Shown in pieces: positions 2,250-36,713 of a stretch of DNA of 44,928 nucleotides. A model generated the notes under the pieces. It was not told the DNA's origin. It was given only the letters and a program-made list of their open reading frames with translations, and made no database searches. Source of the DNA: an uncultured Clostridia bacterium (lineage in GTDB: Bacteria; Bacillota; Clostridia; Oscillospirales; CAG-272); NCBI GenBank assembly GCA_937892405.1, contig CALAFS010000242.1, positions 1-44,928 on the forward strand, given 5' to 3'. Numbering within the stretch: position 1 is the stretch's first letter; every line of letters begins with the position of its first letter. The position numbers and the translations under genes are program-made.

Positions 2250-2259
2250 ATATAATCAC

Positions 2260-2268: not shown

Positions 2269-2272
2269 TATA

Positions 2273-2300: not shown

Positions 2301-2369
2301 ATTTTATGCGGCGGTGGGATTTTTACCACACCATTCTTGTACAGGCACAGGTGAACCGAAGGCGCGCTA

Positions 2370-11586: not shown

Positions 11587-11588
11587 AA

Positions 11589-12629
11589 TCAGATAGAGGT
11601 TGCACCCGTCACGGCGCTGGAACTGTTTACGGCAAGCAGAATATGCTTCCAGCTGTTGAATCCGACACCGAAACGGCAATAACCGTTCCAGACGAAATTG
11701 CGCGTCGCATCGTCAATGTGGTTGCGGATATCCAGCTTCACGCGGTTGTAGAACATGTTGCCGAGGAGGTTGCGGTTTGCCGCGGAAGACATCATCATGA
11801 AACGGTCGTCGGTCGTCTCCCAACCGGGCAGAACAACAAGCGTATAGGCGCCGTACTGAATGTTGATGTCGTTGTAATCGGTGCCGGCAACGCGCTCGGA
11901 ACCGATCACCTTCTTCATCTTCAGCTCGAATTCGGGACGGTTGCACGGAAGAATGACCGTATCTGCGACATACTCCATCGTCTCGCCGCTTTCGTCCTTG
12001 AAATTGCGGAGCTTGTTCGACAGAACGACGAGTCCCTTCTCAAGCTTGCTCTCCGACGCGGTGATGTCTCCGTAGAAGAAGTTCGACTGCGTTTCTCCCG
12101 CAAACTTTTCGAGACTGTACGGGTGTTCGGAACAGAACAGGGGCTTCTTGTCACCGCAGGTCAGGTCAACCCGCTCGGAATTGATGCGCATTTCCGACGC
12201 CGTGCCGTGAATCAGTGCCTGTGCGCCGACCTTTGTGCGGGTCTTGTAATACGCACGGGTGAACGCTCGCGGGAGTGCTTTGATGTTCGCACCGATGCCG
12301 AACTGCGCGTCATCCGCCATTTCACGCGTAATAGTGAATTCCTTGCCGAAGGCAATGTGCTCGATCGTCTTGTGATAGGTTTTCTCGATGCTGTCGTTAT
12401 CCGCCTTTGCACCCTCGACCTTCGCATGGAAAGTCTCGAATTCCGACTGTGCCATGACAGTCTCGGAAGCGCGATTCGACTTCTCGACATTGTAAAGAAC
12501 ATCGAGAATATTTTTCTGCTTTTCGCAAACATCGGATTCATGCTCAATGAGAGCCTTGATGGCGTGCTCGAACTTCCCGTACATCGGGTCGTTCTTGCCA
12601 CTCATTTTTGAATAGATGAATGTGCTCAT
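11589..12629 (-). CDS. Major capsid protein
   Basis: The 346-aa ORF has an AAGGAG RBS. It follows the scaffold and the small decoration-like gene, and its size and composition are typical of HK97-fold capsid proteins. Confidence 0.7.
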   Translation of the reverse strand: MSTFIYSKMSGKNDPMYGKFEHAIKALIEHESDVCEKQKNILDVLYNVEKSNRASETVMAQSEFETFHAKVEGAKADNDSIEKTYHKTIEHIAFGKEFTITREMADDAQFGIGANIKALPRAFTRAYYKTRTKVGAQALIHGTASEMRINSERVDLTCGDKKPLFCSEHPYSLEKFAGETQSNFFYGDITASESKLEKGLVVLSNKLRNFKDESGETMEYVADTVILPCNRPEFELKMKKVIGSERVAGTDYNDINIQYGAYTLVVLPGWETTDDRFMMMSSAANRNLLGNMFYNRVKLDIRNHIDDATRNFVWNGYCRFGVGFNSWKHILLAVNSSSAVTGATSI

Positions 12630-13080: not shown

Positions 13081-13932
13081 TTACTCCTTTGTTTTTTTGT
13101 AGAGCTTTGCAAGCTCTCTGTCAGAGCAGTCAGGAAACAGATCGCGCCATTCTTCAAGTTCCTTCTTCGGAATGGTGACGGATGTATCCTTCGTGCCCTT
13201 GGGTACGGTGGAATGAATGTGATTTTTGGTTTCCGCAAGGTTCTGCTTCCGCACGGACTCGGCAACATTTCTTCTGACGGCATCGGGGTGCGAGGCAATA
13301 TATGCCTCTTTCGCGGAAAGTCCGAGGTCACGAAGCTCTGCGAAGCGCTTTGCGTGCGGGAACTCCGCAACGGAATTGTAAGATGCGGCATCGGGGTAAT
13401 TTCTTTTTACCTCCGCAAGATCAAGCTGCATCAGCGTTTCGTACTGAAGGGCGTCCGCTTCGCTCTTTGCTCTCTCGCTTTCGACAGCTGCCTCTACGGT
13501 CTTTCTGTACTCGTCGGGCGGAACATCTTCCATATCCGCACCGGCTTCGATAAGTCCGAGATACAGATCGTCAGTATCTTTGACGCCCAGCTTTTCGAGC
13601 ACCTTCTTGCCCGCATGCCGCAATCTCCTCTTTTCGTCCTCAAGCTCACGGATTCTTTGATCCCTGTCGTCGGAGGATTTTTCCTCCGATGCTTCAGACT
13701 GCTTGCTTTTTTCGGGAGGAGTTTCGGGTGCGGGATTTTCCTTTCCGGATTCTTCTTCGTCCGGCTGCGTCGGCGCAGGTTCGCCGCTTTCGTTTTCTTC
13801 TTCGTCGGCTTCCTCTTCGGTTCCGTCGGATTCTTCCGACGAGAACAAAGCGTCGATGTCCTCTTCTGTGGATTCTTCGGTCGGATTTTCCTCGCCTTCG
13901 AGGTCAATCTCAATCATTTCGTCTGTGCTCAT
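13081..13932 (-). CDS. Capsid scaffolding protein
   Basis: The N-terminal half is highly acidic (EE/DE runs) and the C-terminal half is helical. The gene lies immediately upstream of the capsid genes. ATG 13932 has an AAGGAG RBS, whereas the ORF-track start at 13953 has none. Confidence 0.65.
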   Translation of the reverse strand: MSTDEMIEIDLEGEENPTEESTEEDIDALFSSEESDGTEEEADEEENESGEPAPTQPDEEESGKENPAPETPPEKSKQSEASEEKSSDDRDQRIRELEDEKRRLRHAGKKVLEKLGVKDTDDLYLGLIEAGADMEDVPPDEYRKTVEAAVESERAKSEADALQYETLMQLDLAEVKRNYPDAASYNSVAEFPHAKRFAELRDLGLSAKEAYIASHPDAVRRNVAESVRKQNLAETKNHIHSTVPKGTKDTSVTIPKKELEEWRDLFPDCSDRELAKLYKKTKE

Positions 13933-13961
13933 TGTTTTCTCCTTTGCCGTCATGCGGCTTT

Positions 13962-14203: not shown

Positions 14204-14398
14204 TTACATCTCGTTTTCGGTTTTTACGGAATTTGCGCTCACTTTCCAATACTGCCTGCATCTTGCGCAGCGGAAGGTCAGCCCTTCGATGTGACTGTCT
14301 TTCAAAAGACCGACCATCGGCACCCGTTCTTTGCAGTCGGGGCACTGGATTTTTGTGACTTTTGCGACTTCTGTTTTTTCGACCCGGTACATATTCAT
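14204..14398 (-). CDS. Zn-ribbon protein, Com-like (Mu Com-type zinc finger) candidate
   Basis: The CPDC...CARC pattern sits in the context IQCPDCKERVPMVGLLKDSHIEGLTFRCARCRQ. The GGGAGGA RBS directly abuts the first ATG, so ATG 14392 is the more likely start. Confidence 0.5.
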   Translation of the reverse strand: MNMYRVEKTEVAKVTKIQCPDCKERVPMVGLLKDSHIEGLTFRCARCRQYWKVSANSVKTENEM

Positions 14399-14520: not shown

Positions 14521-17500
14521 TCAGGAAGCGGACACAAGGACTTTCCCGCCTTTGACCGTAAATCCGCAGGCTTCGGCAGCAATTACGCGCTCTTCTGCCG
14601 AAAGCTCTGTCGAAGACTGTATGTAGCGAAGCAGTTTTTTCTTTGCCGCGGTTTCACTCATACCGCGAAGCTCACCGTCCTTCACACTGTAACCGTTCAG
14701 GTAAAGAAGAAACAGTGCCTCACCGACAGGGAGTCCGAGTGATGCAATGTAGCGCAACACCTTCTTTTTCTTCGTGCCGCTGACGACGGTTCCATTTTTA
14801 TTCTTGTCCGCCTCGAAGGAGGATATTTTGGCATTCACGAGCGCCAAAGTTCCGACATCTGTCATCTTCGCCGCTACCGTCCGAATATCCTTTTCCGTGT
14901 CAAGCACCGTCTCCGTTGCCTGTTGATAATAGGTGTCATAGACATAGCGGATCGCCTTTGTCTGCTCCGCAGCGTTAAGTGTGAGAAACGCCGGTTTGGT
15001 GACAAGCCGCTCAAGCACATCGGCAGACTGTCCGTATATCTTACGGAACAGCGCTTTGTTTTCACCGCTCAATTCATACTCGTCTCCGTCATACGATATC
15101 TTATTCCCGATGCTCTTCGGAAGCGGATTCTGCCCCGCTTTTAAGAGAGATTTCATCGTTTTTGATGTGCTGTTTCCGGGATTCTCCTCACCGTCTTCCG
15201 TCGTTTCGCGATTCCATGTTTTCAAAAGCGTGCCCGTCGTATTCTTCAATTCTGTGCCGGCATCCACACCGACGCTGTCACGGCTTATCATCGAAAGAAG
15301 AAGATCCGTCATATCATCGTCTTCGTTTTCGATCGCTTTGACAAGATCCTTGCGATAGTTCTGCTGATAGAACAGATCATCAAGCACATAACCGGCACGC
15401 GCGCTCACTTTTGATGTGACACCGTAAACGAGTTTGTATGCGTTCTTCAACGGGACACCGAGCATCTGCGACGCCGCATACAGGAAGTCACGGGTCGCCT
15501 TTGCCGCCTCCTGCTTTTCCGCCGTGCCGTCAATGATTTTCGGCATCACGACCGCCGCGGCTTTGGTGGCATTCATGGCATTATTTATCATATCATAGGT
15601 CGGCGCCGACATCTCGTAGCCGTCCATCATGAAAGACATGACATCCTTGATAAGCGGAAGTCCGCCGAACAGATTGCCGATCGTGCCGAGGATCAGGTTG
15701 GAAGCCAAATTTTCATCTTCATCTTTCTGCCCGAAGAACCACCGGAAGAACTCGGCAATAAGCGCCATATACACTGCACTGGAAGCGAGTGCAAAAGTTG
15801 CCTTTTTGAAAGATTTGCTCGCCTTTTTGATGCCCGCCTGCAATTCTGCACGCACCCGCGGATCGCTTTCTGCCTTGAGTTTTGCGGTCAAAACACGCCA
15901 TTCGCCCCAAGAATCCAAGATACGGTCAAACACCTTCATAGAGTCTGCGGAGAAAAGCGTCGTCAGACGGAGGAAGTCGTTTCCCGAGCGCATTGCCTCC
16001 GAGCGTTCGGTAGCGTACGCATTTTGCTGTGTCTCGAGAATGACGCGTTCGAGAAGTTTTCCTGCCGCCTGCTTGTTTTCCACCGTTCCGATCTTTGCTC
16101 CGCCCTCTTTTTGAATCTGCACCTGACATGCACCGAAGAGCTTCTTCACCACGAAACGGTCAACCTTTCCGATCGGCTCCATCAACACCTCGCCGATGCT
16201 TCCGATCTTGTCGGTGACTGCCTGTGCGCGATATGCAGTCTTGTCATAGTTTCTGACCTGCGCGAGCTTGCAATATACATCTACATCTTTACTGCTGATC
16301 GTAGCGCCGCGGATCAAGGAGGTAACATCAAGAATACTTGTCGAAGCAAGCAACGAAGAAAGCTGTGACGCAAGCACTTTAGGATTCAGTGCGAGAACGG
16401 CTGTTGCGTATTTTCCGATCAGTTTCTGCACGATCGGAAGTTTCCCGTCTCTCCCGATACCTTTGCAATCCTGCTTGAGCTTTGTGAGATACTTTTCTCC
16501 CCCGCGCCACGATTTCTCCGCGGTGGTACGCATTGATGTCGGGTTGTTCGGGTTCCCGCTGATGTCATAGTTCCAGATCATATCTATCGTATCAAGCACC
16601 GATCCGAACGCGGCATAGCGCGAGATACCTTCGATATGCCGCGACAGCACCTCATCAATAGGAGAAATCACAAGTTTCGCCTTCGCGCCTTTTACAGTGC
16701 TCTTATTGAAAGACTGTCGGTTGACGCTGACTCCCTCTCCGAAGAAATCACTGTCAAAGCTCTTTGCCGCACCGATACGCACGACGGGAACATAGTAGCC
16801 CTCGGTAACATTGCTGTACCCGTTGCGCAGCATATCCGTCGCACGCTTCAGTTCACGGCAGTCCTTGTAAATCTCCTCCGCGATAGATATGAATTCGAGA
16901 TCCGACGCCGAAAACTGTGATTTCAATTCCGCAATACACTTCTTCGTCAGAGTCTCCGCCTGCTCTGCCGTAAGGTTCGACTCCGCGATAGGTCTGACCG
17001 TAAGAGTCTCCGCGTCCCGGCGAATCTCAAAGCCCGAAAGCAAAAGTCCCGCTGTCGCAATATCGCGGTGGAAAGTCATGTAAAGCTGTGCGGCTTCGCG
17101 TTTGGTTAAGGTTTCGTTATTGTAAATAACGGTTTCTTTCTGCGCCCGCTTCAGCCACTTCCTGTTTTCTTTTTTCTTGTAGAAATCCTCTAGTCTTTGC
17201 CGAAGGTCATGCTCGATAAAGGATCGCTTTTCTTCCGCTTCCCGGAACGCCATTATGCTCGTGGTAAAAAATCCGTTCTGGTCGTACCCGTCAGCGAATT
17301 TTGCGACAGTCATCGGTTCGGAAAAGTTTTCACGATAGCTCGACAAAAGCTTTGACCGCATGGCACGATAAGAAATGCCGTAATTCGCGGTTTTTGCCTT
17401 TTCCGCAATGTGAATCATACTCTCGGCAAGAGGTGCAACATCCTGCCATTTGCCGTCGCGGAAGACACGGTTGAAATTCTCGACGAAGTGTTTGAAATAA

Positions 17501-20500
17501 TCGACGACATTCCCCAACCGGTTCAACTCTTCCGCAGAAAGCGTGGTATCCTTCGCCATGCGGGAAAGAAACTGTTTCGTTTCTGCCGAATACGCATCCC
17601 CGATGTTCTTTCTCGTATAGAAGTCCCGCAGGGTCGTCATGGCATCTTTCCTCGATAAACCTTCCAGGGAAAGTCCTGTCTTGTTGTAGAGAGAAATCAC
17701 CTCGTTCAGACTGCTCTCTTCCGCTTCGGTCATGATACGGGCATCTTCGGCAAGCGACGAGAGCATGCCGGCGATCTCACTGTTATATCTTCCGCTGCCT
17801 TCCAGCATGTTCTTTGTTCCCTCGGAAGAATACCAAAGGTAAAGATCCCGCATGACCTTGCGTACCGCACCGTCGCGAATGTTGCCGTTTGCCGCAATGG
17901 AAGAGAGTTTTCCAACGGTCTGCATAAGGATTTTCGGACGATACTGCGTGGCGTTCTGAAAGACACCGCTCTTCCAGTCTTTGATCCCCTGTACCTTTTT
18001 GAGCACACGGTTTTCGAGAGGAGGAATCCGACGCTCATCTCTTAACTCCTGCTTGAGCGTGCGGACTTTTTCGGCGTTCTCCTGTTTGAGCGAATGGATA
18101 GTATCCTCGTTCTTCTGCTTGAGCGTGCGGACTTTTTCGCTATACTCTTCGACAAGCTTTCCGTACTTTGTTTTCTTCCCCTCGAGTTCACGGATCGACA
18201 GAATTTTTTTCACGATCTCGTCACGCAGGGCAGCGATTTCCGCTTCCGATCCGAAAGCTTTGAGCTTTTCGGAATAGACTCTGTCACGCAGGATTTCCTT
18301 CGAGCGCTGATACAAATCAAGAATATTGAAAAAGCACTCGGCTTCCGAATCCGCCACCTCGATCTGAAGTCCCGATTCCTTTAATTCTATGGCAACCACA
18401 TCGGCGGTAAATCCACCTTCTTTTTTGCCCCAAGTCAGGAAAACTCCGTTTGCCTTGTCATCGTATGTGTACTTGATCTCGCCCTTCAGTGCTTTCAAAT
18501 TCATGTTGTGCATGAATCCACGAAGCACTGTCAGAGCCGCCTCAGCGTGTTCGATATCGTTGTCGGTATATCTCGCGTCGTTGTAGATTTCTTCCACCAT
18601 CGTATTCTCGATGATATAATCGGCAATATCGGTCGCAGACTTTTGGAGATCCGCCTCGCTTGCGCTCTTGTTGAACTTCTGCCACAGGTAATTGACAACG
18701 GCACTCTTTGTTTTTCCTTTGAGTTTTCCTTTCAGAGAGGAGTGCTCATCGTTAAACTGCATAACCTCGTCCACCATGCTGTTGACCGAGGCTTCAAGCT
18801 CTGTCTTGCTGTAATACTTTTCCCGGCTGATGTCCGTTGCCTGACGAACATGTGTGGGATCGTCCGCGTAGGACATGTAATTTCTCGTAACATGAAGCGA
18901 GCCGTCCTCCCCCTCCGAGAAGGTGAACTCGCCATCCTCGGGGAGAGCGAAACGGATCGAGTCGGAAAGAGTCCCGACAGAACGCTTGATTCCGAGTTTT
19001 TGCAATACATCTTGAGAAAAAATTTCATTTGCAAGCGGAAGAGTCTTGACTTTTTCGAGAAAATCGGATATACTAATAGCAGGAGACTCTGAGGAGATGA
19101 GAGAGCTTTGCTCTGTAACAGCCGTGCCGCCAAGAGCGGGTGTAGGAGTCTCTGTTTTTTTGCTTTTCACTGCTCCGAGTCGGTAGACATCAATCTCGGT
19201 TACATCATTTTCGATTCTCGAGACCACGGAACGCACTACATAGAGATTCTCCCCGTCACGGCAAGCACCGAGTAGCACATAGGACATCTCTGTTTTTCGT
19301 GTCGTGCTGCCGTTAAGCTCGTTTACTGCAATGCTACTTTTTAGTACATCACCGATTCTTGTGACTGCAAGCGCAGTTTCTTTACTTCTTGCGATACCGT
19401 GTTGCATCCCCTCCCTACTCAACAAAACATCTCGTCCGATATCATCAACATAAACATATACATTTGTGTCGGTGTTATGCGGATTTTTTTGACTTCTCGC
19501 GTTCATCCTGCCGAGAGCTACAATCGCCTTGCGGTCTATCTTACCGTCTTCGGTTGTCGGCACTGTCTTCGGAAGGGCTGTTACCTTCATGTCCTTTTTC
19601 GCGATCAGTGCATCGTAAGTGTAGCGTGAGGCGTTTTCGCTGTTCTCGGAAAGCGCAAAACGAATGTCGGGGTTTACTGTCGGGGTTTTGTTGCTTGTGC
19701 TTTTGAACTGTTCCGAAGTAAACGCAACATAAACCGTGGAATTTTCATATTTATTGTCGACAATGTATCCGTCGTATCCGAGAACCCGTTTTGTTGTGAG
19801 CAACACAGTCTCGGCTCCTGCACCGGAATTCGCGATATTTGCAAGGATTTCCGAATCACTGTCGCAATAATCCATACACGAATTTACAGTATCGGTAAGT
19901 GCACGATTATACCAAGCCTTTGACGGATACCCCATACCGCCCTCGGAATCAAAATTGGCAATCACATCATCGCCCGTAGGATCAATAGCTTGTACCAATT
20001 TCTTTACTTCAGCGCGAGTAAGAGTCACTTTACTGTCAGACAAAGGCTTCTTGATACTCAAATATCCGTCAAGCAGTTGCCCGCCTTCTTTTGAATATCC
20101 TTCCGCCATTTCCTTATTCTGCGTGAAATAAAACCCCTGTCCCTCCGCCGATCCGTTGGTACTCATAAACCGATACGAAAACTCCGTGAATATAGCCGGA
20201 GAGCCATGATATACACGCAACAAATTCCCGTTAGCGTCTACAACCTTTGTACCGTCAAAGTATTTCCTCTGCCCGTCAGAAAGCTTTTTCCCTTCACTGT
20301 CGGTGTCAGGAAGTGCCATGCGAGCATCTTTCGTTGTTTTGGGAGCACTTTCCGAATTTTTTTCGTCAAAGGGGTTGACTTTTTCGGAATTCTCGGATAT
20401 CCTATTAGCGGAAGATTCCGCGCGATCATAGGTCGGCACTGCTTTTTCAAGCGATTTCAGCCGAAGTATAAAGTGTGCGGGATCTTCTTCATTTTTGTTA

Positions 20501-23500
20501 AAAGCAATTTTTGCCGCATCTGTGCCAGTATTTTTTGCAGATGGGTTGACATCCGAGGCTTTTTCGGATATAATATCAGTAGTGGAGTTTCTGCCGTTCG
20601 TTTCGGGCGTTCCTGCAAAGGCATTTGCATTTGCTGACGGTGTATGACCTCCACTCTTTTCATTTATAATCCATGCACTCTTTAATGTAAGAGTGCCTTT
20701 TTTAGTAGAGGTAATAGCAATTGCGATGTTTTTTCCGTCAAGAGTCTTCTCAAAGCGTAGTGCAGTACCAGTCGAATCGCTTACAAGTTTGACATCAGCG
20801 GGAGAAATAACCGTCTCAAGTATATTTTTGATATTGACATCATTAACGGCTTTTTGCCCTCTCGGCGTTTCTATCGTCTCGTTACCATGTGAATTATATA
20901 TGTGATAGATGAAATTACTCGCCAGCACAAAATCATAGTTTTTGATATCTATGCCCGTACTCGCTTTTACAAGATCCGCGGTTTTGTCACTGATAATACC
21001 GATATGTAAGCGGGAAAAGGATGTTTTTTTCCTTGAGTTTTCTATAAACTCTACGATTTCCTCATAATTGCGTGAAACATGATCCTTTCCGCTACTTTCA
21101 ATGTGTCTCACCCGTGTAGCATCATATTCTCCAAGTTCTTTCAATGCATTCGATAGTGCAAACCTTGCCCCGCTGCCGTAGGTAGCGTTCTGCTCGGAGA
21201 GTGTGTCGAAGAGCTTCTTGAATTGTTTCAAGTACCGTTTCGCTTCGGCACTCATCTTTTCGTCAAACGAATAATCCCGTGCTGCTCTTCGGAAGAAGGA
21301 CAGCACTCTTTCTTTTGTTGTCGGCTTTTCGGAAAGAATGTAGTCCCATATCTTCGGGTCGGAGGCGATCTCTTCGGCATAGGCAGACGCAACCTCGTCC
21401 TCCAACGCGTTTTTCTTTTCTTTGGCAGGGAGCTGATCGTAAACGCCAGAGTCCTCATACTGCTTAATCACTTTTCTCCGCTTCTCCGGATCTATGTTTT
21501 CCATAGCCTCGGCAATCAGCCGATTTCCGTTTTTCTGTCGGACGAGGATATGATCGAGTTCATGTATGAGCAACTTTCCACGCAAGCGTGTCTCCGATGA
21601 CCGAGGATTCAGATATATGACATTTCCGAGATTCATGCCGTCGCCGGGAAGATAGGGATGAAACATGACAATCAACCCCGAATGTGCCGCAAATCTCGCG
21701 GTCAGTGTTACGCTTTCTTCCGAGAGATTCGCCTCCATTGCCTGCCGGATTGTCATTCTTACCGCCTGCCTGTCGGGTGCATTCAGCTTTGTATACTCCG
21801 GAACATTCTTTTTCGCGAAGTCCTCAATGCGCTCTCTCATCTCGACGCTCGGCGTCTTTTTATCTCCGGCAACCTCAAGTCCGGCTTCTTCTCTCCAAGC
21901 GGTCAGGACTTTCTGCGCCTCCGAATATTTCATCGGGCGGGAAAGTCCTTTTTCGTTGTAATCGTAAAAGCGGTATTCTTTTCCCATCTGAAGAATTCCG
22001 AGATCCGTGTCCCCGATTCTGTACCGTCTGACGCCGTCCTGTGCGCGGTGTACCGACTTCGGAAGCGTGTGGCGGATATTTGCCTCCCCTACCGCAGAAA
22101 ATGCCTGTGTAGCGTTTTCTGCCGCCTTGTAGTAGTCCTCCCCCACGCTCTCACGGTATTTTCTTACCCGCTCGCGAAGAACATCGGAGGTTTCGGAAAG
22201 AAGATCCTGCACGCCGAGCGCCTCGGTAACTCTCTTCAACTGGTGCGGTTTTGCATTTTCAATATAGGTATTGAGCTGTTCCTGCGAAAACGCGGCATCT
22301 TCTCCTGCGAGAAGCGCATCGGTATACGCCTCCGTGTTCATAGTAAGGCGTTCGGTCGCTCGAAGAACGGTAAGTGTTCGGAGCTTCTGATTGGTTTTCA
22401 GCGCTTTGACAATGCTCTTTCTGTATGCCTGCGGCGAGGACATATCAACGCCGTCGAGAAGTTCTTCCGCAGTGATATGTATCTTCTCTCCCGAAGTGCT
22501 GTCGGAATAAAAGCGATTGATCGCATCGGCGACCCCCTCGGGATTGCTTAAAATATTCGTCGCTTCCTTCCAAAAATACGGCTGAAACGCAGCGACCGTA
22601 TTCGCGCGATCGAGATAACCGAGAAGCATCTTTTGCTTGACGGTCAGTGTGTCGGAGGGATGTGTCTCTACCGACGCTTTGAATTCGCGCAGAGCGCTGT
22701 CTACCGCGCGGAAAGCGTCAGATTCCGTCTTTACACTTGTCTCGGTGTTCGCAATCTGCTCGGAACGGGTGAGAATACGCTGTGTTTCCCCTCTGTTTTC
22801 GATGTTTGCACCGTGCACCACATTGGTTGCGGCATTGACTCCGCCGGCAACCCCCGACATAATCATGCCCGAAAGACCGCCGACAAGGGCGGAATAAGCA
22901 ATCTCCTGAAGAGAGGCATTTTCCGCGTTCGGATCATAGGTTGCGCGCTTGATATACGGTTCAAAAATAGCCGAGATAATTTCCTCTCCCGCTTCTCCCG
23001 CAAAACCCTTTGCCATTGTCTTGAAGATCCCCTCGTGGGCGATCGTTTTTACCGTATCCTTTCCGAAAATCCCTCTCGCCGCTTTTTTCGCGGCGCCGAA
23101 TCCGAGTCCGAAGACGGTATCGCTGAAGGTCTCTACTGTGCCTTCGAGAGCACCCGCCCCCGTTCCGTATGCCCATTCCTCCGCGCCGAGTTTCCCCGTC
23201 TCTCGGTAAGCGTCTTTCACCGAATTTCCTGCCGCGGAAAGTCCCGAGGTAAGAAAGGTGGTCGTTCCTGCAAGCGCCGCCTGCGCGACGGTACTCATGC
23301 CTCCCGTGGCAATTCCCACACCGACGCTTGCGGCAAGCCCGGGGACACTGTTTCCGATTCCCGCGGCTACATCTCCCGCAAGTTTCCACCCGTCATCGGG
23401 TACAAACCACGAGTCCGCGTGCGAATAATCGAACCAGTCATTCGTCATCAAAGATTCGGCGTATTTATGATTGCCTGTAAGTTCCGCAATACCGCCGACG

Positions 23501-23661
23501 GTATAATCAACCAGTCCTTCGAGCGCACCGGCAAAGCCAAGCCCCGCTTTTTCAAGCAGATAGCTGAGACCTGCCCAAACGCCGCCCTTATTCTGCTCGT
23601 CGATCGGCTTTGCAAGGCTCGTCGTGGCACCGTTTCCGATTCCTTTTACCGTTCCTGTCAT
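14521..23661 (-). CDS. Giant (3046 aa) virion-module polyvalent protein
   Basis: This single uninterrupted ORF is translationally coupled to the upstream gene (ATGA overlap). Recognisable parts are: a Gly/Ala-rich hydrophobic N-terminus; HELDH at 21550-21564; paired-His HIYNSHGN at 20881-20904; the ART-like motifs RVYHGS...GQGFYFT...GYDGYIVDNKYENSTVYVAF; coiled coils; and C-terminal TM helices at about 15640-15815. Confidence 0.8.
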   Translation of the reverse strand: MTGTVKGIGNGATTSLAKPIDEQNKGGVWAGLSYLLEKAGLGFAGALEGLVDYTVGGIAELTGNHKYAESLMTNDWFDYSHADSWFVPDDGWKLAGDVAAGIGNSVPGLAASVGVGIATGGMSTVAQAALAGTTTFLTSGLSAAGNSVKDAYRETGKLGAEEWAYGTGAGALEGTVETFSDTVFGLGFGAAKKAARGIFGKDTVKTIAHEGIFKTMAKGFAGEAGEEIISAIFEPYIKRATYDPNAENASLQEIAYSALVGGLSGMIMSGVAGGVNAATNVVHGANIENRGETQRILTRSEQIANTETSVKTESDAFRAVDSALREFKASVETHPSDTLTVKQKMLLGYLDRANTVAAFQPYFWKEATNILSNPEGVADAINRFYSDSTSGEKIHITAEELLDGVDMSSPQAYRKSIVKALKTNQKLRTLTVLRATERLTMNTEAYTDALLAGEDAAFSQEQLNTYIENAKPHQLKRVTEALGVQDLLSETSDVLRERVRKYRESVGEDYYKAAENATQAFSAVGEANIRHTLPKSVHRAQDGVRRYRIGDTDLGILQMGKEYRFYDYNEKGLSRPMKYSEAQKVLTAWREEAGLEVAGDKKTPSVEMRERIEDFAKKNVPEYTKLNAPDRQAVRMTIRQAMEANLSEESVTLTARFAAHSGLIVMFHPYLPGDGMNLGNVIYLNPRSSETRLRGKLLIHELDHILVRQKNGNRLIAEAMENIDPEKRRKVIKQYEDSGVYDQLPAKEKKNALEDEVASAYAEEIASDPKIWDYILSEKPTTKERVLSFFRRAARDYSFDEKMSAEAKRYLKQFKKLFDTLSEQNATYGSGARFALSNALKELGEYDATRVRHIESSGKDHVSRNYEEIVEFIENSRKKTSFSRLHIGIISDKTADLVKASTGIDIKNYDFVLASNFIYHIYNSHGNETIETPRGQKAVNDVNIKNILETVISPADVKLVSDSTGTALRFEKTLDGKNIAIAITSTKKGTLTLKSAWIINEKSGGHTPSANANAFAGTPETNGRNSTTDIISEKASDVNPSAKNTGTDAAKIAFNKNEEDPAHFILRLKSLEKAVPTYDRAESSANRISENSEKVNPFDEKNSESAPKTTKDARMALPDTDSEGKKLSDGQRKYFDGTKVVDANGNLLRVYHGSPAIFTEFSYRFMSTNGSAEGQGFYFTQNKEMAEGYSKEGGQLLDGYLSIKKPLSDSKVTLTRAEVKKLVQAIDPTGDDVIANFDSEGGMGYPSKAWYNRALTDTVNSCMDYCDSDSEILANIANSGAGAETVLLTTKRVLGYDGYIVDNKYENSTVYVAFTSEQFKSTSNKTPTVNPDIRFALSENSENASRYTYDALIAKKDMKVTALPKTVPTTEDGKIDRKAIVALGRMNARSQKNPHNTDTNVYVYVDDIGRDVLLSREGMQHGIARSKETALAVTRIGDVLKSSIAVNELNGSTTRKTEMSYVLLGACRDGENLYVVRSVVSRIENDVTEIDVYRLGAVKSKKTETPTPALGGTAVTEQSSLISSESPAISISDFLEKVKTLPLANEIFSQDVLQKLGIKRSVGTLSDSIRFALPEDGEFTFSEGEDGSLHVTRNYMSYADDPTHVRQATDISREKYYSKTELEASVNSMVDEVMQFNDEHSSLKGKLKGKTKSAVVNYLWQKFNKSASEADLQKSATDIADYIIENTMVEEIYNDARYTDNDIEHAEAALTVLRGFMHNMNLKALKGEIKYTYDDKANGVFLTWGKKEGGFTADVVAIELKESGLQIEVADSEAECFFNILDLYQRSKEILRDRVYSEKLKAFGSEAEIAALRDEIVKKILSIRELEGKKTKYGKLVEEYSEKVRTLKQKNEDTIHSLKQENAEKVRTLKQELRDERRIPPLENRVLKKVQGIKDWKSGVFQNATQYRPKILMQTVGKLSSIAANGNIRDGAVRKVMRDLYLWYSSEGTKNMLEGSGRYNSEIAGMLSSLAEDARIMTEAEESSLNEVISLYNKTGLSLEGLSRKDAMTTLRDFYTRKNIGDAYSAETKQFLSRMAKDTTLSAEELNRLGNVVDYFKHFVENFNRVFRDGKWQDVAPLAESMIHIAEKAKTANYGISYRAMRSKLLSSYRENFSEPMTVAKFADGYDQNGFFTTSIMAFREAEEKRSFIEHDLRQRLEDFYKKKENRKWLKRAQKETVIYNNETLTKREAAQLYMTFHRDIATAGLLLSGFEIRRDAETLTVRPIAESNLTAEQAETLTKKCIAELKSQFSASDLEFISIAEEIYKDCRELKRATDMLRNGYSNVTEGYYVPVVRIGAAKSFDSDFFGEGVSVNRQSFNKSTVKGAKAKLVISPIDEVLSRHIEGISRYAAFGSVLDTIDMIWNYDISGNPNNPTSMRTTAEKSWRGGEKYLTKLKQDCKGIGRDGKLPIVQKLIGKYATAVLALNPKVLASQLSSLLASTSILDVTSLIRGATISSKDVDVYCKLAQVRNYDKTAYRAQAVTDKIGSIGEVLMEPIGKVDRFVVKKLFGACQVQIQKEGGAKIGTVENKQAAGKLLERVILETQQNAYATERSEAMRSGNDFLRLTTLFSADSMKVFDRILDSWGEWRVLTAKLKAESDPRVRAELQAGIKKASKSFKKATFALASSAVYMALIAEFFRWFFGQKDEDENLASNLILGTIGNLFGGLPLIKDVMSFMMDGYEMSAPTYDMINNAMNATKAAAVVMPKIIDGTAEKQEAAKATRDFLYAASQMLGVPLKNAYKLVYGVTSKVSARAGYVLDDLFYQQNYRKDLVKAIENEDDDMTDLLLSMISRDSVGVDAGTELKNTTGTLLKTWNRETTEDGEENPGNSTSKTMKSLLKAGQNPLPKSIGNKISYDGDEYELSGENKALFRKIYGQSADVLERLVTKPAFLTLNAAEQTKAIRYVYDTYYQQATETVLDTEKDIRTVAAKMTDVGTLALVNAKISSFEADKNKNGTVVSGTKKKKVLRYIASLGLPVGEALFLLYLNGYSVKDGELRGMSETAAKKKLLRYIQSSTELSAEERVIAAEACGFTVKGGKVLVSAS

Positions 23662-25382
23662 TGTAACATATCCTTCTTTGTACGATTTGTGTTACCCGAT
23701 GGAGCAAGAGCGGAAGATGTTTTTGCTTCCGAAGTTCCCGTTCCACTCCGCTCACTTGCTTTCAAAAATGTCGCAATAGCGTCATCGACTTTATCGCGTC
23801 GAGAAACAAGTTGACTCCAGCCATAAGTGGTGAATAGATACATTTTTCCCTGATAGACAACGAGTTTTCCGCCTTTTTTTTCGCTATCGACATATTTGTT
23901 GCCGAAGATACTTTCATGCGTAACAGACGGAGATTTGTTTGGGCTTCCGGTAGCCAATTCATTCAGTTTGGCGAACAAAGCTTTATCACTATTTTCTGTA
24001 ACCGGCTTTCCACAATCCAACTCAAATTTTGTCCCGCTGCCATCGTCTTTTTTTGCACCGATCACTACACCGATGCTATCTCCGGGAATACCGGTTCCGA
24101 GTCCTGTGATACACCATCCTCCTTCACATTTTGCGGAAGTATAGGATTGCATTTCCTCGTTGTATTTCTTTTCATCGATTTTTCCAGCCGCATACTGCTT
24201 TTGAATATCGGATATGCTGTCGGTAATTTTTTCTTCGTTTGTCTTCGGGTAAGTCGTCTGATAATAATTTGTCAGCCATTCGGCATCCGATTCCGTCAGG
24301 CTGCCGTTTTTCAAAGCACGATCAATCTCGGTGATATCATAGTCTTTTCCGAGCGCATCAATGGCAATTTTATATTCCTGCCGGTTTGCGTCGGATTCGC
24401 TCATCTGATACTTCTTCGCCGCCGAAGCAAGATTCTCCGTCTGTTCTGCGCTCAAACCGTTATCGGAGGCAAGCTGGCGCGCTTCTTCCTCGTTGATACT
24501 TCCGCTCTTCACCATGCCGAGGATCGTTGTATACATGGAATTTGCTTCTTTTCTTTTGGTTTCCTGCTTTTCCTCGTAAGCCGTCATCTCTTCCCGATAC
24601 TTGTCGTGAGCGGTATCCTGTTCCGTAATAAGTTTATCCTTCGCCGCCGCGACAGCATCCGCATAGGTATTCCCTGCGGCATCCTTTCGCGTTTCCGACA
24701 ACACATTCGCACCCTGAATGTCAGAACGCTTCTGTGCGTACGCTTTGGAATCAAGATATTCCGCATATCCGCTGCCCGAGAGTCCCATGCGACGAAGTGC
24801 CTCCGCATTTGCTCCGTAGGTAGACTTTTCCGTCTGATAGGAAGAATCGGCATCACGCACCGATCTCTGTCTCTCCGTCTCGGCATTTTCAATTGTCTGA
24901 TCGCGGTTCCTTTCCGCGACATCCACTGTATTGTTATATCTGTCGGTTGCGGCATTCAATTTCCGTTGCAACGCCTCGCTGTAAGACGGAACGGAAGCGT
25001 CGTCGTTACCTGTAACGGGCACCGTTTCATACGGCATACGGTCAGACGCGGGTGTCTGCTCTTCCTGTGCAGGTGTCTGCGCCGACTGTGCAGGTGCTTC
25101 ACCGGGCGTGGTCGAGTCCCGGAGGTTTTGAGAGTTTAAGCGACTCTGAAGGAATTTCTGATACGCTCCCCCGGTGACCCCACCGGTACCGCGATTGATC
25201 TCCTCCACCAGTTTATCGTTTGCGCTCGGCTCGGGAATTCTGTTCTTCAGAAAGTCGCCATAGGTCATAAGTCCCGGCTTGCTGCTTGCGGAAATCCGGT
25301 TATTGATAAGCGCCGTGTCTCCGCTCGCTTTTTGCGAAAGGCTCTCCGCAAGTTCTTTGTAATTTTTCGGTCTCATGTTCAC
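23658..25382 (-). CDS. Virion-associated (internal/minor head) protein of unknown function
   Basis: The 574-aa ORF is translationally coupled between the portal gene and the giant gene. Its centre is Gln/Glu/Ala-rich and coiled-coil, and its C-terminal domain is Cys-containing. Confidence 0.6.
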   Translation of the reverse strand: MNMRPKNYKELAESLSQKASGDTALINNRISASSKPGLMTYGDFLKNRIPEPSANDKLVEEINRGTGGVTGGAYQKFLQSRLNSQNLRDSTTPGEAPAQSAQTPAQEEQTPASDRMPYETVPVTGNDDASVPSYSEALQRKLNAATDRYNNTVDVAERNRDQTIENAETERQRSVRDADSSYQTEKSTYGANAEALRRMGLSGSGYAEYLDSKAYAQKRSDIQGANVLSETRKDAAGNTYADAVAAAKDKLITEQDTAHDKYREEMTAYEEKQETKRKEANSMYTTILGMVKSGSINEEEARQLASDNGLSAEQTENLASAAKKYQMSESDANRQEYKIAIDALGKDYDITEIDRALKNGSLTESDAEWLTNYYQTTYPKTNEEKITDSISDIQKQYAAGKIDEKKYNEEMQSYTSAKCEGGWCITGLGTGIPGDSIGVVIGAKKDDGSGTKFELDCGKPVTENSDKALFAKLNELATGSPNKSPSVTHESIFGNKYVDSEKKGGKLVVYQGKMYLFTTYGWSQLVSRRDKVDDAIATFLKASERSGTGTSEAKTSSALAPSGNTNRTKKDMLQ

Positions 25383-27325
25383 TTTTCAAGTCCCCTTTCC
25401 TGAATCTTTTTCAAAAGATAGGTTTCATAATTTTCGTGATTTGCGAGCTCTTCTCCCATATCCGCGATCTGCTGTTGTGCCGCAGCCTCCTGCTCACGCC
25501 GTGCTACAATCTCTTTGAAGTACTCCACATTCTCGCGGGCAAAGGGATAATGCGTACGCTCGAGAATCTGCCAGTACCGAAGCAAAGTCAGCGGATCGGA
25601 AGGATCTCCGTAGGTGCCGCTTTTCAGGTTGGCGAGATTTTCCTGCCACAAAGTTTCCCGGGAGCGCTCAATGTCGATCGTGGAATCCGTAGAAAAGAGA
25701 TATTCGTCATTGTAATACCACTCTCCCGACTCGTCCCGTTCGATGAAGTCGTAACGGTTGAACATGATATTCTGACGGTTTCCGAGAGCATCGATCACCA
25801 TCGCGGGACGCGGCTCGTCGGCGTAAGCAAGGTAATACTGAAAAATGATCTTGTCTATGCGAGCATAGGCGGAATTTTTCATCTGTCTCTTGCTGTCAAG
25901 CCGTCCCGCCGCCTGCTGAATCTGAAGCTGCTTTGCTTTTCCGCTCTGTGCCGAGCCGTCATACTGTCCCTGAAAGCTGTCCGTGATACCGAGAATCCGC
26001 TTTGCGTGATCGTAAAGGCGCTCCGCCTCTGCAATATCCTGCGAGATATTCGACTGAAGGTCAAGGATACCGTAGAGACCTTGCTGTCCCTGTTTCAGAC
26101 GGATCACCTGTCCGAACACCGAATTGTCCAAAGTAATATCGGAATCCTCGGGAATGGTCGGAAATACGCTCGATTTCATCAATTTCTCAAGAATACGGCT
26201 TTCCACCTTGTTGATTGCCTGCTGAAGCGGACGAATAAATTCGCAGTCCGACTGACCGAGAAGGCTATTCTCCTGCGAGGTATTCTTTCGGATCACGATC
26301 GGTAAAGCGTCCGGAAGATAGAACGGCAGCCGTGTCGGCTCTGTTTTCGGGATCTGCACATCTTCGAGGATCGGCAACAGCATACCGCTCTCGTCATCGG
26401 GTGCAAATCCGAGACTTCCATCTTCAAGAACCGCCTGACGCCGTGTCGTTTCGTATACGATTTGTCCGTCGCGAATCATCTCGGAGCGCGCGGGAATCAT
26501 ACCGTGTGAGGTAACGATATCACGGTCGAGCTCTTCGTATTCTTCACTTTGCAGAATAAGTTTCGGCTTCTCGCAAGAGCAGAGTTCTTTTCTCTTTCCG
26601 CATGTTGCGCAAACATAACGCTTTCTCGCGAAATAGTCATCAATGTCAAGAAGTTCGGTCTCTCCCGACCATACATACTCGCACACCTTATTCTCTTCGT
26701 TTTTGTAGTAGCAACAATAAAGAGTTGCCGTCTTATCGTCCGCGCCTTCGTCCGACTGCGTCGCATCGAGCAATTCGGGAGAAATATTGTACTGCCTGAC
26801 AATATCTTCTTTCGTTGTCTCAAAAGAGATGAAACAATACTCCATGTCATCGATGGAGTAGATGTTCGGTTGCCCGACGAAATGCTTCGGAGAGATACAC
26901 TTGATCCGGACATCTCCCACGGCGTTATGTGTAATGACAGAGTTGTCCCACTCCACAAGCCATACAGAACCTCCGTAAATCGGATTGTAGCGCTCGTCCA
27001 TATCGTTCTCTTCCTCGAAAGGAAGCTCGTCCCGTTTGTTGCGTAACAGCGTCTCAATGCTCTTCGCATTCCGCTCGTTCTTCTCGTTGTACATTTTCGG
27101 AGTTACGATAGGTGTCGGCAGATAGCTCGTGATCTGCGATTCAATGAGCTCGTATGTAATATTCCGGACATGCTTTGCAGGGGTATCGGAACCGTCGATC
27201 TCCTCCGATCCTTTGTACTGTCTGTAATACTTATCGAGAAGCTCGTTGTTCGTGTCACAGTAGCCTCTTGCCTCTTCATAAAGCTCCTTGAAAAAGGTGA
27301 GCTTATCGTTTGTATTGATAATCAT
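25379..27325 (-). CDS. Portal protein
   Basis: The 648-aa ORF lies immediately downstream of TerL with an ATGA overlap. Size and the region ITDSFQGQYDGSAQSGKAKQLQIQQAAGR fit portal proteins. Confidence 0.75.
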   Translation of the reverse strand: MIINTNDKLTFFKELYEEARGYCDTNNELLDKYYRQYKGSEEIDGSDTPAKHVRNITYELIESQITSYLPTPIVTPKMYNEKNERNAKSIETLLRNKRDELPFEEENDMDERYNPIYGGSVWLVEWDNSVITHNAVGDVRIKCISPKHFVGQPNIYSIDDMEYCFISFETTKEDIVRQYNISPELLDATQSDEGADDKTATLYCCYYKNEENKVCEYVWSGETELLDIDDYFARKRYVCATCGKRKELCSCEKPKLILQSEEYEELDRDIVTSHGMIPARSEMIRDGQIVYETTRRQAVLEDGSLGFAPDDESGMLLPILEDVQIPKTEPTRLPFYLPDALPIVIRKNTSQENSLLGQSDCEFIRPLQQAINKVESRILEKLMKSSVFPTIPEDSDITLDNSVFGQVIRLKQGQQGLYGILDLQSNISQDIAEAERLYDHAKRILGITDSFQGQYDGSAQSGKAKQLQIQQAAGRLDSKRQMKNSAYARIDKIIFQYYLAYADEPRPAMVIDALGNRQNIMFNRYDFIERDESGEWYYNDEYLFSTDSTIDIERSRETLWQENLANLKSGTYGDPSDPLTLLRYWQILERTHYPFARENVEYFKEIVARREQEAAAQQQIADMGEELANHENYETYLLKKIQERGLEK

Positions 27326-29119: not shown

Positions 29120-29139
29120 TTTGTTCTCCCGAAAAAACA

Positions 29140-29200
29140 AAAAGAGCCATGTTCCCCTTTTCCGGGTTCCTTGGCTCTCGCTCTTGGCATTGGCTCTTTT
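29140..29200 (-). terminator. Terminator-like structured leader (H1) between late promoter copy B and terS
   Basis: On the minus strand, AAAAGAGCCAATG pairs with CATGGCTCTTTT. An alternative AGAGCCA partner exists at 29172-29178. The element is followed by TTTTGTTTTTT. Confidence 0.5.
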
Positions 29201-36703: not shown

Positions 36704-36713
36704 GGCTTCCGCC

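Follow-up and report, generated by a model that had tools for sequence, protein, structure and literature searches.

A predicted polyvalent protein of 3046 residues in a Clostridia prophage combines two conserved cores with a variable effector cassette

The giant gene and its head-gene neighbourhood

The window, the whole 44,928-nt stretch of DNA analysed here, contains a prophage of ~40.6 kb that encodes a serine integrase and interrupts a P-type ATPase gene of the host. Its head genes follow the order TerS, TerL, portal, 574-aa gene, giant gene, scaffold-like gene, major capsid protein (MCP) and adaptor (Table 1). The single 9.1-kb open reading frame (ORF) that a first-pass annotation of this DNA had placed between the 574-aa gene and the scaffold and capsid genes is real: it has an ATG start, lies on the minus strand and encodes 3046 aa; it takes up 22.5% of the phage genome. 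The ATG shares bases with the stop codon that ends the 574-aa gene upstream (ATGA); a Shine-Dalgarno-like AGAAGGA precedes the start by 9 nt. Two small ORFs sit between the giant ORF and the scaffold-like gene, and a 140-aa protein is encoded between the latter and the MCP gene. The head-block order is identical in both relatives examined (2/2), where the scaffold-like gene matches in position and the counterparts of the 574-aa gene differ in length (822 and 977 aa). The 574-aa protein, which matched no family in profile searches, is possibly a second internal virion protein. No ORF scanned matched a tape-measure, sheath or tube family, which is absence of evidence only, and database searches found no cultured phage relatives of the giant protein.

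This setting bears on where the protein acts. A function in the lysogen or the late-infected cell, such as superinfection exclusion, or as a host-captured toxin reservoir, would suit the integrated state of the element and the 5'-truncated copy of the giant gene retained in the Anaerocaecibacter muris isolate genome, and host-captured polyvalent proteins are noted by Iyer et al. (PMC5512222). We regard such a function as very improbable, because the gene is co-oriented with the late head operon and start/stop-coupled to it, lies far from the lysogeny module (38.9–42.8 kb), keeps its head-block synteny in both relatives examined, and occupies a share of the genome that an accessory gene without a role in the virion would hardly be expected to take.

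Table 1. Features of the giant gene and the surrounding head block (positions in the window; amino-acid numbering of the giant protein)
Feature	Position (nt)	Strand	Residues	Remarks
TerS-like	28721-29140			head block
TerL	27322-28734			head block
Portal	25379..27325	-		PHROG 156, E 1.7e-38; weak SU10_portal match
Gene for the 574-aa protein	23658..25382	-		start/stop-coupled to giant gene
Whole polyvalent protein gene	14521..23661	-	3046 aa	stop codon 14521-14523
Gly/Ala-rich helical N-terminal region	22792..23661	-	1-290	G+A; invariant columns
N-core helical region	21790..22791	-	291-624	conserved; three-strand element aa 543-567 at end; pLDDT about 70-85
Zincin-like metallopeptidase domain	21262..21789	-	625-800	HELDH aa 700-704, nt 21550-21564
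Junction motif 1	21154..21165	-	R833-F-A-L836	N-core / PBECR3 module
PBECR3 (BECR-fold RNase)	20656..20997	-	889-1002	PF18812, E 2.8e-10, 40.6 bits vs 30-bit cut-off
Junction motif 2	20311..20322	-	R1114-M-A-L1117	PBECR3 module and low-complexity linker / ART
ART-PolyVal ADP-ribosyltransferase	19678..20238	-	1142-1328	PF18760, E 8.8e-22, 78.8 bits vs 31.2-bit cut-off
Junction motif 3	19651..19662	-	R1334-F-A-L1337	ART / module X
Rare module X	18955..19650	-	1338-1569	coverage in relatives; weak LPD3-like match
Junction motif 4	18943..18954	-	R1570-F-A-L1573	module X / C-core
Conserved C-core	14524..18942	-	1574-3046	PHROG 22978; homologue coverage
Conserved hydrophobic helix pair in C-core	15646..15801	-	2621-2672	candidate membrane hairpin
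Small ORF, CxxC...CxxC ribbon	14204-14398			one of two small ORFs beside giant gene
Scaffold-like protein	13081..13953	-		290 aa, acidic; assigned by composition and position
Major capsid protein	11589..12629	-		PHROG 371, E 6e-8; tblastn to annotated capsid genes
SU10-adaptor-like protein	10672-11679			Pfam E 0.0013, under curated cut-off

Two constant cores flank a variable effector cassette

Comparison with 119 relatives divides the chain into three parts. An N-core (aa ~20–830) and a C-core (aa ~1600–3046) are conserved in 119/119, with all relatives aligning over aa ~50–800 and aa ~2050–3000; variability is confined to a cassette at aa 835–1570, and aa 850–1600 are aligned by just 5–105 of the 119. 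The cores, the sole universally conserved parts, amount to ~75% of the chain and are without a match in Pfam, LPD families included. Some relatives have nearly no cassette.

Two of the cassette modules exceed curated Pfam cut-offs, and correspond to the paired-His nuclease-like module (PBECR3) and the ADP-ribosyltransferase-like module (ART-PolyVal) recognised in the first-pass annotation. In PBECR3, 'FIYHIYNSHG' holds the candidate helix histidine and 'TLTLKSAW' the candidate C-terminal T/S, whereas the candidate H-Y-D residues of the ART are H1152, Y1178 and D1297, following the site definitions in PMC5512222. The third module, X, had been described as a further conserved module; it is real, yet no other part of the protein is less conserved, and only about 5–10 of the 119 relatives have it. 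It is 50% identical to aa 1322–1552 of the protein P0100, where the same junction motif flanks it, and its match to LPD3 is sub-threshold (E 0.026). Further domains typical of the class are found in relatives (PBECR5, LPD3, LPD-type families, MuF_C and GNAT); profile searches found no MuF domain in the window protein.

Given the Pfam matches to ART-PolyVal and PBECR3, the conserved HELDH domain and the head-gene context, the giant protein is almost certainly a member of the known phage-type polyvalent class, as had been proposed from the first pass. According to Iyer, Burroughs, Anand, de Souza and Aravind (2017, J Bacteriol, PMC5512222), such proteins likewise join ART-PolyVal, a PBECR RNase and a zincin HExxH domain in one chain, and a late or head gene neighbourhood is given as their genomic context. 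Unlike the proteins described there, the giant protein consists mostly of two large conserved cores without a Pfam family, and its effectors form one central cassette between them, with modules bounded by R-[FY]-A-L.

A zincin-like peptidase in the N-core

The N-terminus is rich in Gly and Ala (G+A 31% over aa 1–300), as claimed earlier; aa 1–290, a region conserved in all relatives, include many invariant G, W, Y, P and E residues, and AF2 predicts helices at low pLDDT there. The peptidase domain further downstream contains the HELDH motif that the first pass had recognised. An alignment of 31 diverse relatives shows no variation at H700, E701, H704, E756 or E763, either E756 or E763 being a candidate third zinc ligand. 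The AF2 model places a helix and three strands before the HExxH helix, the layout described for the zincin core in PMC5512222. Among 11 family members, metallopeptidase matches were obtained to DUF6782 in eight (best E 2e-6), to Peptidase_M78 in seven (best 1e-4) and to eCIS_core in six, and a PDB search with the family profile found IrrE (E 0.04). The window protein's own peptidase matches are sub-threshold (E 0.006–0.014), and the Pfam MPTase-PolyVal model did not match it. Foldseek returned no solved ejection-protein relative for the N-core.

Processing of polyvalent proteins by their own metallopeptidase was predicted by Iyer et al. (PMC5512222). According to the same paper, such peptidases also occur in N4 vRNAP and plasmid ArdC/TraC1, which are transferred uncleaved. 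Relatives that have hardly any cassette and lack the motif discussed below still conserve the peptidase; cargo release therefore cannot be its only role.

A tetrapeptide motif marks the module junctions

The motif R-[F/Y/M]-A-L occurs four times in the protein, against 0.12 expected by chance and with at least four copies in 0 of 20,000 shuffles, and all four copies fall on boundaries set independently by homologue coverage. Across 77 length-distinct relatives, it was counted 241 times in cassettes, once in N-cores and once in C-cores, and motif number correlates positively with cassette length (r = 0.66). Polar and small residues are over-represented on either side of it (0.66–0.73 vs 0.53 background). 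The four sites encode it with differing codons, and selection thus acts on the peptide. In relatives with 88–97% identical flanks, homology is lost or regained 2–4 residues from the motif at three of four breakpoints. Among long-middle proteins, the motif is present in 74 of 76 carrying this peptidase type and in 0 of 3 in which no peptidase of the usual form was detected at the usual position, a comparison in which the three proteins may be related and P0105 still has a same-type HExxH at a shifted position. P0188, which has the peptidase and a long cassette, lacks the strict motif, as do some other such relatives. Judged from sequence, the motif is a putative site at which the conserved peptidase would cut.

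Pseudomonas phage F116 gp60 (1649 aa) offers a comparison, as another large protein of a phage in which HExxH peptidase and ART domains occur together. It has two HExxH domains, and its ART aligns to aa 1122–1206 of the giant protein with 42% identity; the match in the N-half is confined to this domain and none was found in the C-half. Its gene lies just upstream of lysis genes, whereas the giant gene lies in the head block, and it contains no R-[FYM]-[AS]-[LIM] motif, which, its HExxH domains being different, fits a peptidase-specific site. This counts against cleavage by another enzyme, a prohead or host protease, with the HExxH domain acting as an effector on host proteins. Such an arrangement would accord with the 'MPTase as effector' option that Iyer et al. 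list (PMC5512222), with the retention of the peptidase in relatives lacking cassette and motif, and with nearest profile matches that include the effector-type peptidases IrrE/M78 and M91. It appears distinctly improbable to us, as no prohead protease family was matched among the head-module ORFs scanned and the motif tracks this peptidase type, albeit in small numbers.

The C-core and comparison with ejection proteins

The C-core contains many invariant polar motifs (e.g. TQQN..ATERS..MRSG), and its family comprises 1171 clusters at 50% identity. The part modelled, aa 1850–3046, is predicted to be nearly all alpha-helical, in agreement with the earlier description of ~1450 helical C-terminal residues. 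The hydrophobic pair begins with the strongest hydrophobic segment (aa 2621–2639, Kyte-Doolittle 1.59), and its second helix was read by eye from the sequence and the consensus 'FRWLY...GNLxGGLP'; hydrophobicity is modest (about 1.5–1.6) and AF2 confidence low in the regions, N-terminal ones included, for which a membrane role is proposed. Other large proteins of uncultured phages, with names such as PolyVal ART, LPD or MuF_C, end in the same fold (59 BFVD matches, E <= 1e-3), and Foldseek found no match to any solved structure, ejection proteins included.

The first-pass annotation had suggested that the C-half may also act in ejection, or as a channel, in a virion with a short tail. Such a role would be functionally analogous to that of T7 gp14/gp15/gp16 and P22 gp7/gp20/gp16, which short-tailed phages carry inside the virion and eject so that they span the envelope; in these phages of Gram-negative hosts the role is divided among several smaller proteins instead of one giant chain, and no sequence or fold similarity to them was detected. 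T7 gp16 carries an enzymatic domain. Coliphage N4 vRNAP (gp50, ~3500 aa), which this short-tailed phage packages in its capsid and ejects, resembles the giant protein in its length of ~3000+ aa and its zincin peptidase region, and some N4-like ART-vRNAP fusions carry ART-PolyVal. No RNA-polymerase domain was detected in the giant protein, by sequence or by the fold of aa 1–835 and 1850–3046. The host here is of a Gram-positive Clostridia lineage and the phage temperate, unlike N4, whose vRNAP is packaged uncleaved according to PMC5512222.

The prominence of the cores could indicate a mainly structural protein, which would belong to the internal core or ejectosome of a virion with a short tail or stand in for a tape measure. 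The two cores would then carry out the essential functions, the enzymes would be dispensable passengers, and the motif would be an uncut flexible linker or inter-domain docking strand. Near-cassette-free relatives, a long helical C-core with a hydrophobic pair, the lack of a recognised tape-measure, tube or sheath gene, the weak SU10 (podovirus) matches of portal and adaptor, and one BFVD match annotated 'Structural protein' (Tenacibaculum phage Gundel_1) are all in keeping with it. That match is weak (TM 0.21), however, and the giant gene lies in the head block, not in a tail block. Profile searches returned no tape-measure or tail family, the identity that the first pass had named as contrary to its proposal, and did return effector domains; ejection-protein families and solved structures were equally without match. 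The invariant HExxH...E signature argues for an active protease, and a four-residue motif held at the peptide level is more specific than a plain linker would require. We consider a mainly structural role unlikely, and it overlaps with our preferred explanation rather than excluding it.

Proposed mechanism

Our preferred explanation, which we hold to be somewhat probable as a whole, is a polyvalent protein with a constant chassis and exchangeable effectors, expressed late as a polyprotein. The polyvalent class is known already; R-[FY]-A-L was found neither in the sections and term searches of PMC5512222 covered nor in the searchable literature.

Gene position suggests that the giant protein is likely synthesised with the portal and the 574-aa protein, through overlapping start and stop codons, and then enters the procapsid. 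Upon infection, it may exit the capsid with the DNA, and its Gly/Ala-rich N-terminal helices and C-core hydrophobic pair might, tentatively, help to pass or open the Gram-positive Clostridia membrane. With similar reserve, we propose that the zincin peptidase could cut at the junctions at aa 833, 1114, 1334 and 1570, which would yield five products: the N-core (~92 kDa), the PBECR3 RNase fragment, the H-Y-D ADP-ribosyltransferase, module X and the ~167-kDa C-core. Following published predictions for these families, the freed RNase and ART would act early on host RNA and host proteins, blunting defence or redirecting the cell.

Two constant cores flank a variable cassette

A large protein search recovered 233 relatives of the giant protein (the product of the 3046-aa ORF), mostly 2500–3800 aa long, and the best 119 of the 233 were mapped onto it. 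Residues ~50–800 and ~2050–3000 were covered in 119/119 of the mapped relatives and residues 1600–2050 in about 100–116, whereas residues 850–1100 were covered in about 60 and residues 1100–1350, which hold the ADP-ribosyltransferase (ART), in about 100. This pattern points to a constant N-core (aa ~20–830) and a constant C-core (aa ~1600–3046) flanking a variable central cassette (aa 835–1570), whose contents in relatives include PBECR5, PBECR3, one to several ARTs, DUF3990, LPD3, GNAT and others, with PF18819, which we take to be MuF_C, present as a cassette module in a few. A phmmer query with aa 2030–3046 of the C-core against 1.84 billion cluster representatives returned 1171 proteins at E ≤ 1e-3, counted as clusters at 50% identity, including 417 at E ≤ 1e-30.

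The Gly/Ala-rich N-terminus of about 290 residues described in the first-pass annotation was recovered, with 31% Gly+Ala over aa 1–290 and many invariant G/W/Y/P residues. The AF2 model of aa 1850–3046 (pLDDT 69, pTM 0.57) is almost wholly helical and the C-core contains a hydrophobic helix at aa 2621–2639, in agreement with the earlier call of about 1450 helical C-terminal residues with transmembrane helices near aa 2615–2675; we read a second, weaker hydrophobic helix at about aa 2655–2672. The coiled-coil part of the C-core carries a short in-frame tandem duplication ('EKVRTLKQK.../...EKVRTLKQE') at aa ~1843–1869 (18046–18139), visible in the DNA as a 28-nt repeat whose copies are spaced by 66 nt.

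For the N-core and C-core models, whose whole-chain pLDDT of 67 and 69 limits sensitivity, Foldseek recovered no PDB entry at E ≤ 1e-3, and phmmer against PDB sequences returned nothing. Against BFVD, the C-core model gave 59 Foldseek matches at E ≤ 1e-3; nearly every one of those listed is the second or third chunk of a very long uncultured-phage protein, presumably its C-terminal part, under names such as 'PolyVal ADP-ribosyltransferase', 'Large polyvalent protein-associated domain', 'MuF C-terminal domain' and 'Nuclease'. A weak match (TM 0.21) is a 'Structural protein' of Tenacibaculum phage Gundel_1. UniProt already names C-core-fold relatives polyvalent.

The gene is embedded in the head block

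As first annotated, the gene is one uninterrupted 9.1-kb reading frame, a single ATG ORF of 3046 codons. Its ATG shares bases with the stop codon of the 574-aa gene that precedes it (…TTACAATGACAGGA…), and AGAAGGA lies 9 nt upstream of the start. Beyond the adaptor-like gene lie an 872-aa protein and small 'tail protein' ORFs. The gene order is the same in both relatives examined (n = 2), in which the post-portal gene encodes 822 or 977 aa. The 574-aa post-portal protein is rich in Q/E/A/S, and a weak Hint match was recorded in the 822- and 977-aa relatives; start/stop-coupled to the giant gene, the 574-aa protein is a candidate for a second internal protein of the virion. The comparison of this slot with MuF/gp7-type minor head proteins did not hold beyond gene position, as neither the giant protein nor its 574-aa neighbor has a MuF match.

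Features of the prophage and of the giant protein (positions in nt of the window, or in aa of the giant protein for junction motifs)
Feature	Position	Strand	Remarks
TerS-like	28721-29140		PHROG terminase matches
TerL	27322-28734		PHROG 979, E 2e-52; Terminase_6N
Portal	25379-27325		PHROG 156, E 2e-38; weak SU10_portal
574-aa protein	23658-25382	-	without family match
Giant ORF	14521-23661	-	3046 aa
Two small ORFs	e.g. 14204-14398		CxxC...CxxC ribbon
Scaffold-like protein, 290 aa	13081-13953		acidic; call rests on composition and position
140-aa protein	12653-13075		PHROG, unknown function
Major capsid protein	11589-12629		PHROG 371, E 6e-8
SU10-adaptor-like protein	10672-11679		Pfam E 0.0013, under cut-off
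Tail-gene repeats	5977-6116/7078-7217 and 5563-5589/6624-6650		
Two HTH regulators	38955-39344, 39408-39758	+	HTH_3
Mrr-like nuclease, 442 aa	39791-41119	+	Mrr_cat restriction-endonuclease domain
Large serine recombinase	41417-42799	+	right end
Junction motif 1	R833-FAL		N-core / PBECR3 module
Junction motif 2	R1114-MAL		PBECR3 module / ART
Junction motif 3	R1334-FAL		ART / module X
Junction motif 4	R1570-FAL		module X / C-core

The identity that the first-pass annotation had set against its own reading, a conventional tape-measure or tail protein, was rejected: profile searches gave the giant protein no such Pfam or PHROG family match, its gene lies in the head block, and tape-measure, sheath and tube families had zero matches among the ORFs scanned. 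A virion RNA polymerase of N4 or crAss type was rejected as well, with no sequence match and no fold match for the two modeled cores.

Two further observations concern the tail genes. The adjacent tail-protein genes at 5550–6236 and 6246–7337 (PHROG 5302) share DNA segments 79–96% identical, a pattern indicating that a tail or receptor-binding gene was partly duplicated, apparently recently. In four related loci (L001–L004), an RVT_1 reverse transcriptase lies directly past the tail-fibre genes, which suggests a putative diversity-generating retroelement in these relatives; no reverse transcriptase was found among the window ORFs scanned.

A zincin-like peptidase and two cassette enzymes

The sole HExxH of the giant protein is HELDH at aa 700, and an alignment of 31 sequences, from relatives 33–46% identical to it, shows no variation at H700, E701, H704, E756 or E763. 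The AF2 model of aa 1–835 (mean pLDDT 67, about 70–90 over aa 290–830) places a helix at 648–661, three strands at 664–684 and the HExxH helix at 690–707, which corresponds to the zincin core layout (N-terminal helix, three-stranded sheet, HExxH helix, downstream Glu helix) described by Iyer et al. 2017 (PMC5512222). The predicted metallopeptidase-like module thus stands, on invariant residues and on a zincin-like fold order. Among 11 family members, Pfam scans recovered DUF6782 in eight (best E 2e-6), Peptidase_M78/IrrE in seven (best E 1e-4), eCIS_core in six and M91 in three, and a family profile searched against the PDB reached IrrE at E 0.04. The MPTase-PolyVal model (presumably PF18818) was absent from all Pfam scans, even at E ≤ 10, and the domain is therefore labeled a zincin-like peptidase, outside that Pfam family.

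The Pfam profile search proposed by the first-pass annotation placed two cassette domains above their curated cut-offs. ART-PolyVal (PF18760) spans aa 1142–1328 (E 8.8e-22, 78.8 bits vs a 31.2-bit cut-off, profile positions 1–139 of 140), confirming the ADP-ribosyltransferase-like module, and the RNase-type PBECR3 (PF18812) spans aa 889–1002 (E 2.8e-10, 40.6 bits vs a 30-bit cut-off). By motif position, the candidate H-Y-D residues of the ART are H1152 (YHG), Y1178 (GFYF) and D1297 (GYDG), and the family consensus shows the same YHG/GFYF/GYDG motifs; candidate catalytic residues of PBECR3 are a His in 'FIYHIYNSHG' (H920/H925) and a T/S in 'TLTLKSAW'. The expected ART triad and the PBECR His and T/S are those defined in the 2017 paper (PMC5512222). 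The last cassette segment, module X (aa 1338–1569), scores weakly against LPD3 (PF18798; E 0.026, 15.2 bits vs a 27-bit cut-off), and a relative (P0100) has a module 50% identical to module X but its LPD3 score falls elsewhere, at aa 1644–1740. The 'further conserved module' of about 160 aa is thus real as a module (aa ~1338–1569) but not conserved, aa 1350–1550 being covered in only 5–10 of 119 relatives.

One chain therefore combines at least two disparate activities (PBECR3, ART-PolyVal and the zincin HExxH), and its gene lies in a late, virion-gene context, between portal and capsid and coupled upstream, so that the assignment to the polyvalent proteins is borne out. The best-supported reading is a phage-type polyvalent protein in the sense of Iyer et al. 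A purely structural role is a less likely rival.

A recurrent motif marks the module junctions

Each module boundary of the giant protein carries the motif R-[F/Y/M]-A-L, as in the junction-spanning peptide TVNPDIRFALSENSE. Four copies are present vs 0.12 expected, and 0/20,000 composition-matched shuffles reach four. Across 77 length-distinct relatives, the 106 k residues of the variable regions hold 241 copies of R[FYM]AL, compared with a single copy in 67 k residues of N-core and another in 74 k residues of C-core; the extended consensus is N-x-x-P-T-x-x-x-D-I-R-[YF]-A-L-[PS]-[ED]-x-D. The motif count rises with cassette length (r = 0.66), near-cassette-less relatives have zero motifs, and the flanks are rich in small or polar residues (0.66 upstream and 0.73 downstream vs 0.53 overall).

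The four sites differ in their codons, which argues for a constraint on the peptide rather than on the DNA, and a DNA-level recombination signal is for that reason not supported. Nor is the motif a part of the ART domain, since copies also stand behind the N-core, behind the PBECR3 linker and behind module X, and none precedes the ART of Pseudomonas phage F116. The F116 protein, gp60, combines two different HExxH domains with ART-PolyVal but is without the junction motif; by this comparison of sequences, the motif would be specific to the family of the giant protein. In three relatives with 88–97% identical flanks (P0009, P0047 and P0069), homology stops two residues past a motif in both comparisons and resumes four residues before a motif in one and about 60 before in the other; these breaks near the motif indicate that it marks boundaries of cassette exchange.

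A second linker element, approximately '[ST]-I-S-[EQ]-N-x-E-K-V-N', occurs at aa ~1028–1040, 1082–1096 and 1525–1539, and sits 15–45 residues upstream of junction motifs in the giant protein and its relatives. Two of its copies form a 44-nt, 77%-identical DNA repeat (about 20375–20418 and 19046–19089). This linker may belong to a longer recognition element, or may be the tail of a module.

An integrated prophage with relatives in gut and rumen Clostridia

The genes at the window ends are two halves of one host P-type cation ATPase, split exactly at its PEGLP motif: the N-terminal part runs from 43795 down to about 42830, ending '...AVPEG', and the C-terminal part picks up at about 2249 with 'PEGLPMMIT...' and extends to 507. 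The 8-bp core CCGGAAGG has only two copies in the window, both at these junctions (2242–2249 and 42825–42832), and GC content is 0.54–0.58 in the flanks and 0.41–0.52 inside. The split ATPase, the paired core and the integrase identify an integrated prophage of ~40.6 kb rather than a free phage genome, 22.5% of which is the giant gene. On the opposite strand, 38955–41119 (+) forms a low-GC island (about 0.41) that is probably a lysogeny switch with a prophage-borne defence gene. The early or replication-side genes at 34027–36925 and 37468–38313 (-) carry PcfJ-like, DUF3102 and Lin1244_N domains, families found on Firmicutes mobile elements.

Several direct repeats lie in the host flanks outside the ATPase: 1–100 vs 44332–44431 (55 nt exact, ~100 nt at 92%), 88–291 vs 43841–44044 (204 nt, 90%) and short ones at 231–259, 417–442 and 44436–44681, one flank repeat holding the palindrome GTACTTCGGCGCGCCGAAGTAC. 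None of them is a terminal repeat of the phage; they may stem from intergenic repeats of the host or from the assembly. The exact 55-nt repeat (1–55, 44332–44386) was rejected as a terminal repeat or circularization signal, as its similarity ends at ~100 nt and it lies within the host flank.

A scan of species-representative genomes yielded 71 loci, several on contigs of 100–800 kb and nearly all in gut or rumen Clostridia MAGs (Christensenellaceae, Christensenella, Catabacter, Oscillospiraceae, 'Eubacteriales'). To our knowledge, the phages of gut and rumen Clostridia such as Christensenellaceae and Oscillospiraceae are almost unstudied. Among GenBank phages, megablast and tblastn recovered only unannotated human-faecal fragments, besides ART-only matches in Brevibacillus, Dickeya, Pseudomonas and Tunturiibacter phages. 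The sole isolate among the 71 loci, Anaerocaecibacter muris CLA-AA-M11 (L049, NZ_CALPCE010000003.1), holds a 5'-truncated remnant that extends from the middle of the giant gene's cassette across the scaffold, capsid, adaptor and 872-aa homologues, with a capsid protein 66% identical to that of the window. From their N-termini, we read the abutting genes as malQ- and mnmG-like. A free-standing C-core gene, split naturally at the last junction, was rejected for this strain because the copy is a truncated remnant abutting host genes, and for the same reason the strain is not a ready experimental system; no cultured strain carrying a complete copy was identified.

Proposed delivery and processing of the giant protein

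The giant protein would be a late product that is packaged into the virion and enters the host along with the DNA, where its enzymes would act at the start of infection. Packaging is probable, and a role outside the virion is an unlikely rival. A membrane or ejection role for the two cores is conceivable but put at somewhat below even, and the RNase and the ART would act on host RNA and host proteins.

Self-cleavage by the zincin at R-[FY]-A-L is proposed tentatively. Injection of polyvalent proteins, followed by processing by their own metallopeptidase, was predicted by Iyer et al. (PMC5512222), and no cleavage site was found in the portions of that paper examined. Among long-middle proteins, the motif occurs in 74/76 with this peptidase type and in 0/3 without the peptidase in its usual form or place; the group of three is small and possibly non-independent, and one member (P0105) keeps an HExxH of the same type at a shifted position. 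This comparison draws on 264 sequences, vs 1171 clusters in the family. Counted against self-cleavage are the retention of the peptidase in cassette-less relatives, the existence of cassette-rich relatives without the strict motif, and the N4 virion RNA polymerase, which is peptidase-bearing yet packaged uncleaved (PMC5512222). A rather unlikely rival that shares the junctions as cut sites assigns the cutting to another protease and makes the zincin itself an effector.

Taken as a whole, the fullest version of the self-cleavage reading holds that a large, uncultured group of temperate Clostridia phages uses N-core and C-core together as a general chassis for delivering effectors, that R-[F/Y]-A-L is the recognition site of the zincin of this chassis, and that the modules between sites are packaged, injected and cut free, as a plug-and-play cargo polyprotein; we hold this to be a speculative proposal, with the odds against it. 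If true, it would give polyvalent proteins their first explicit cleavage code, and would explain why modules are exchanged at junction sites. We found nothing relevant to the motif in the literature, and no prior description of the Pfam-less cores as a constant chassis, of the junction motif, or of the host range and prophage biology. The class is known; the motif makes the 2017 processing hypothesis a specific experiment, directly testable with four precise predicted cut sites here, hundreds across relatives, and an invariant catalytic Glu. Should the chassis reading be wrong, the giant protein still gives a known class one more well-annotated member. With 1171 clusters the family is large, and it resides in prophages of gut and rumen Clostridia, with more than one fifth of each phage genome spent on one gene; if the chassis-plus-cassette organization is true, the cassettes amount to a catalogue of effectors for early infection, and engineered cargo could be mounted on the chassis.
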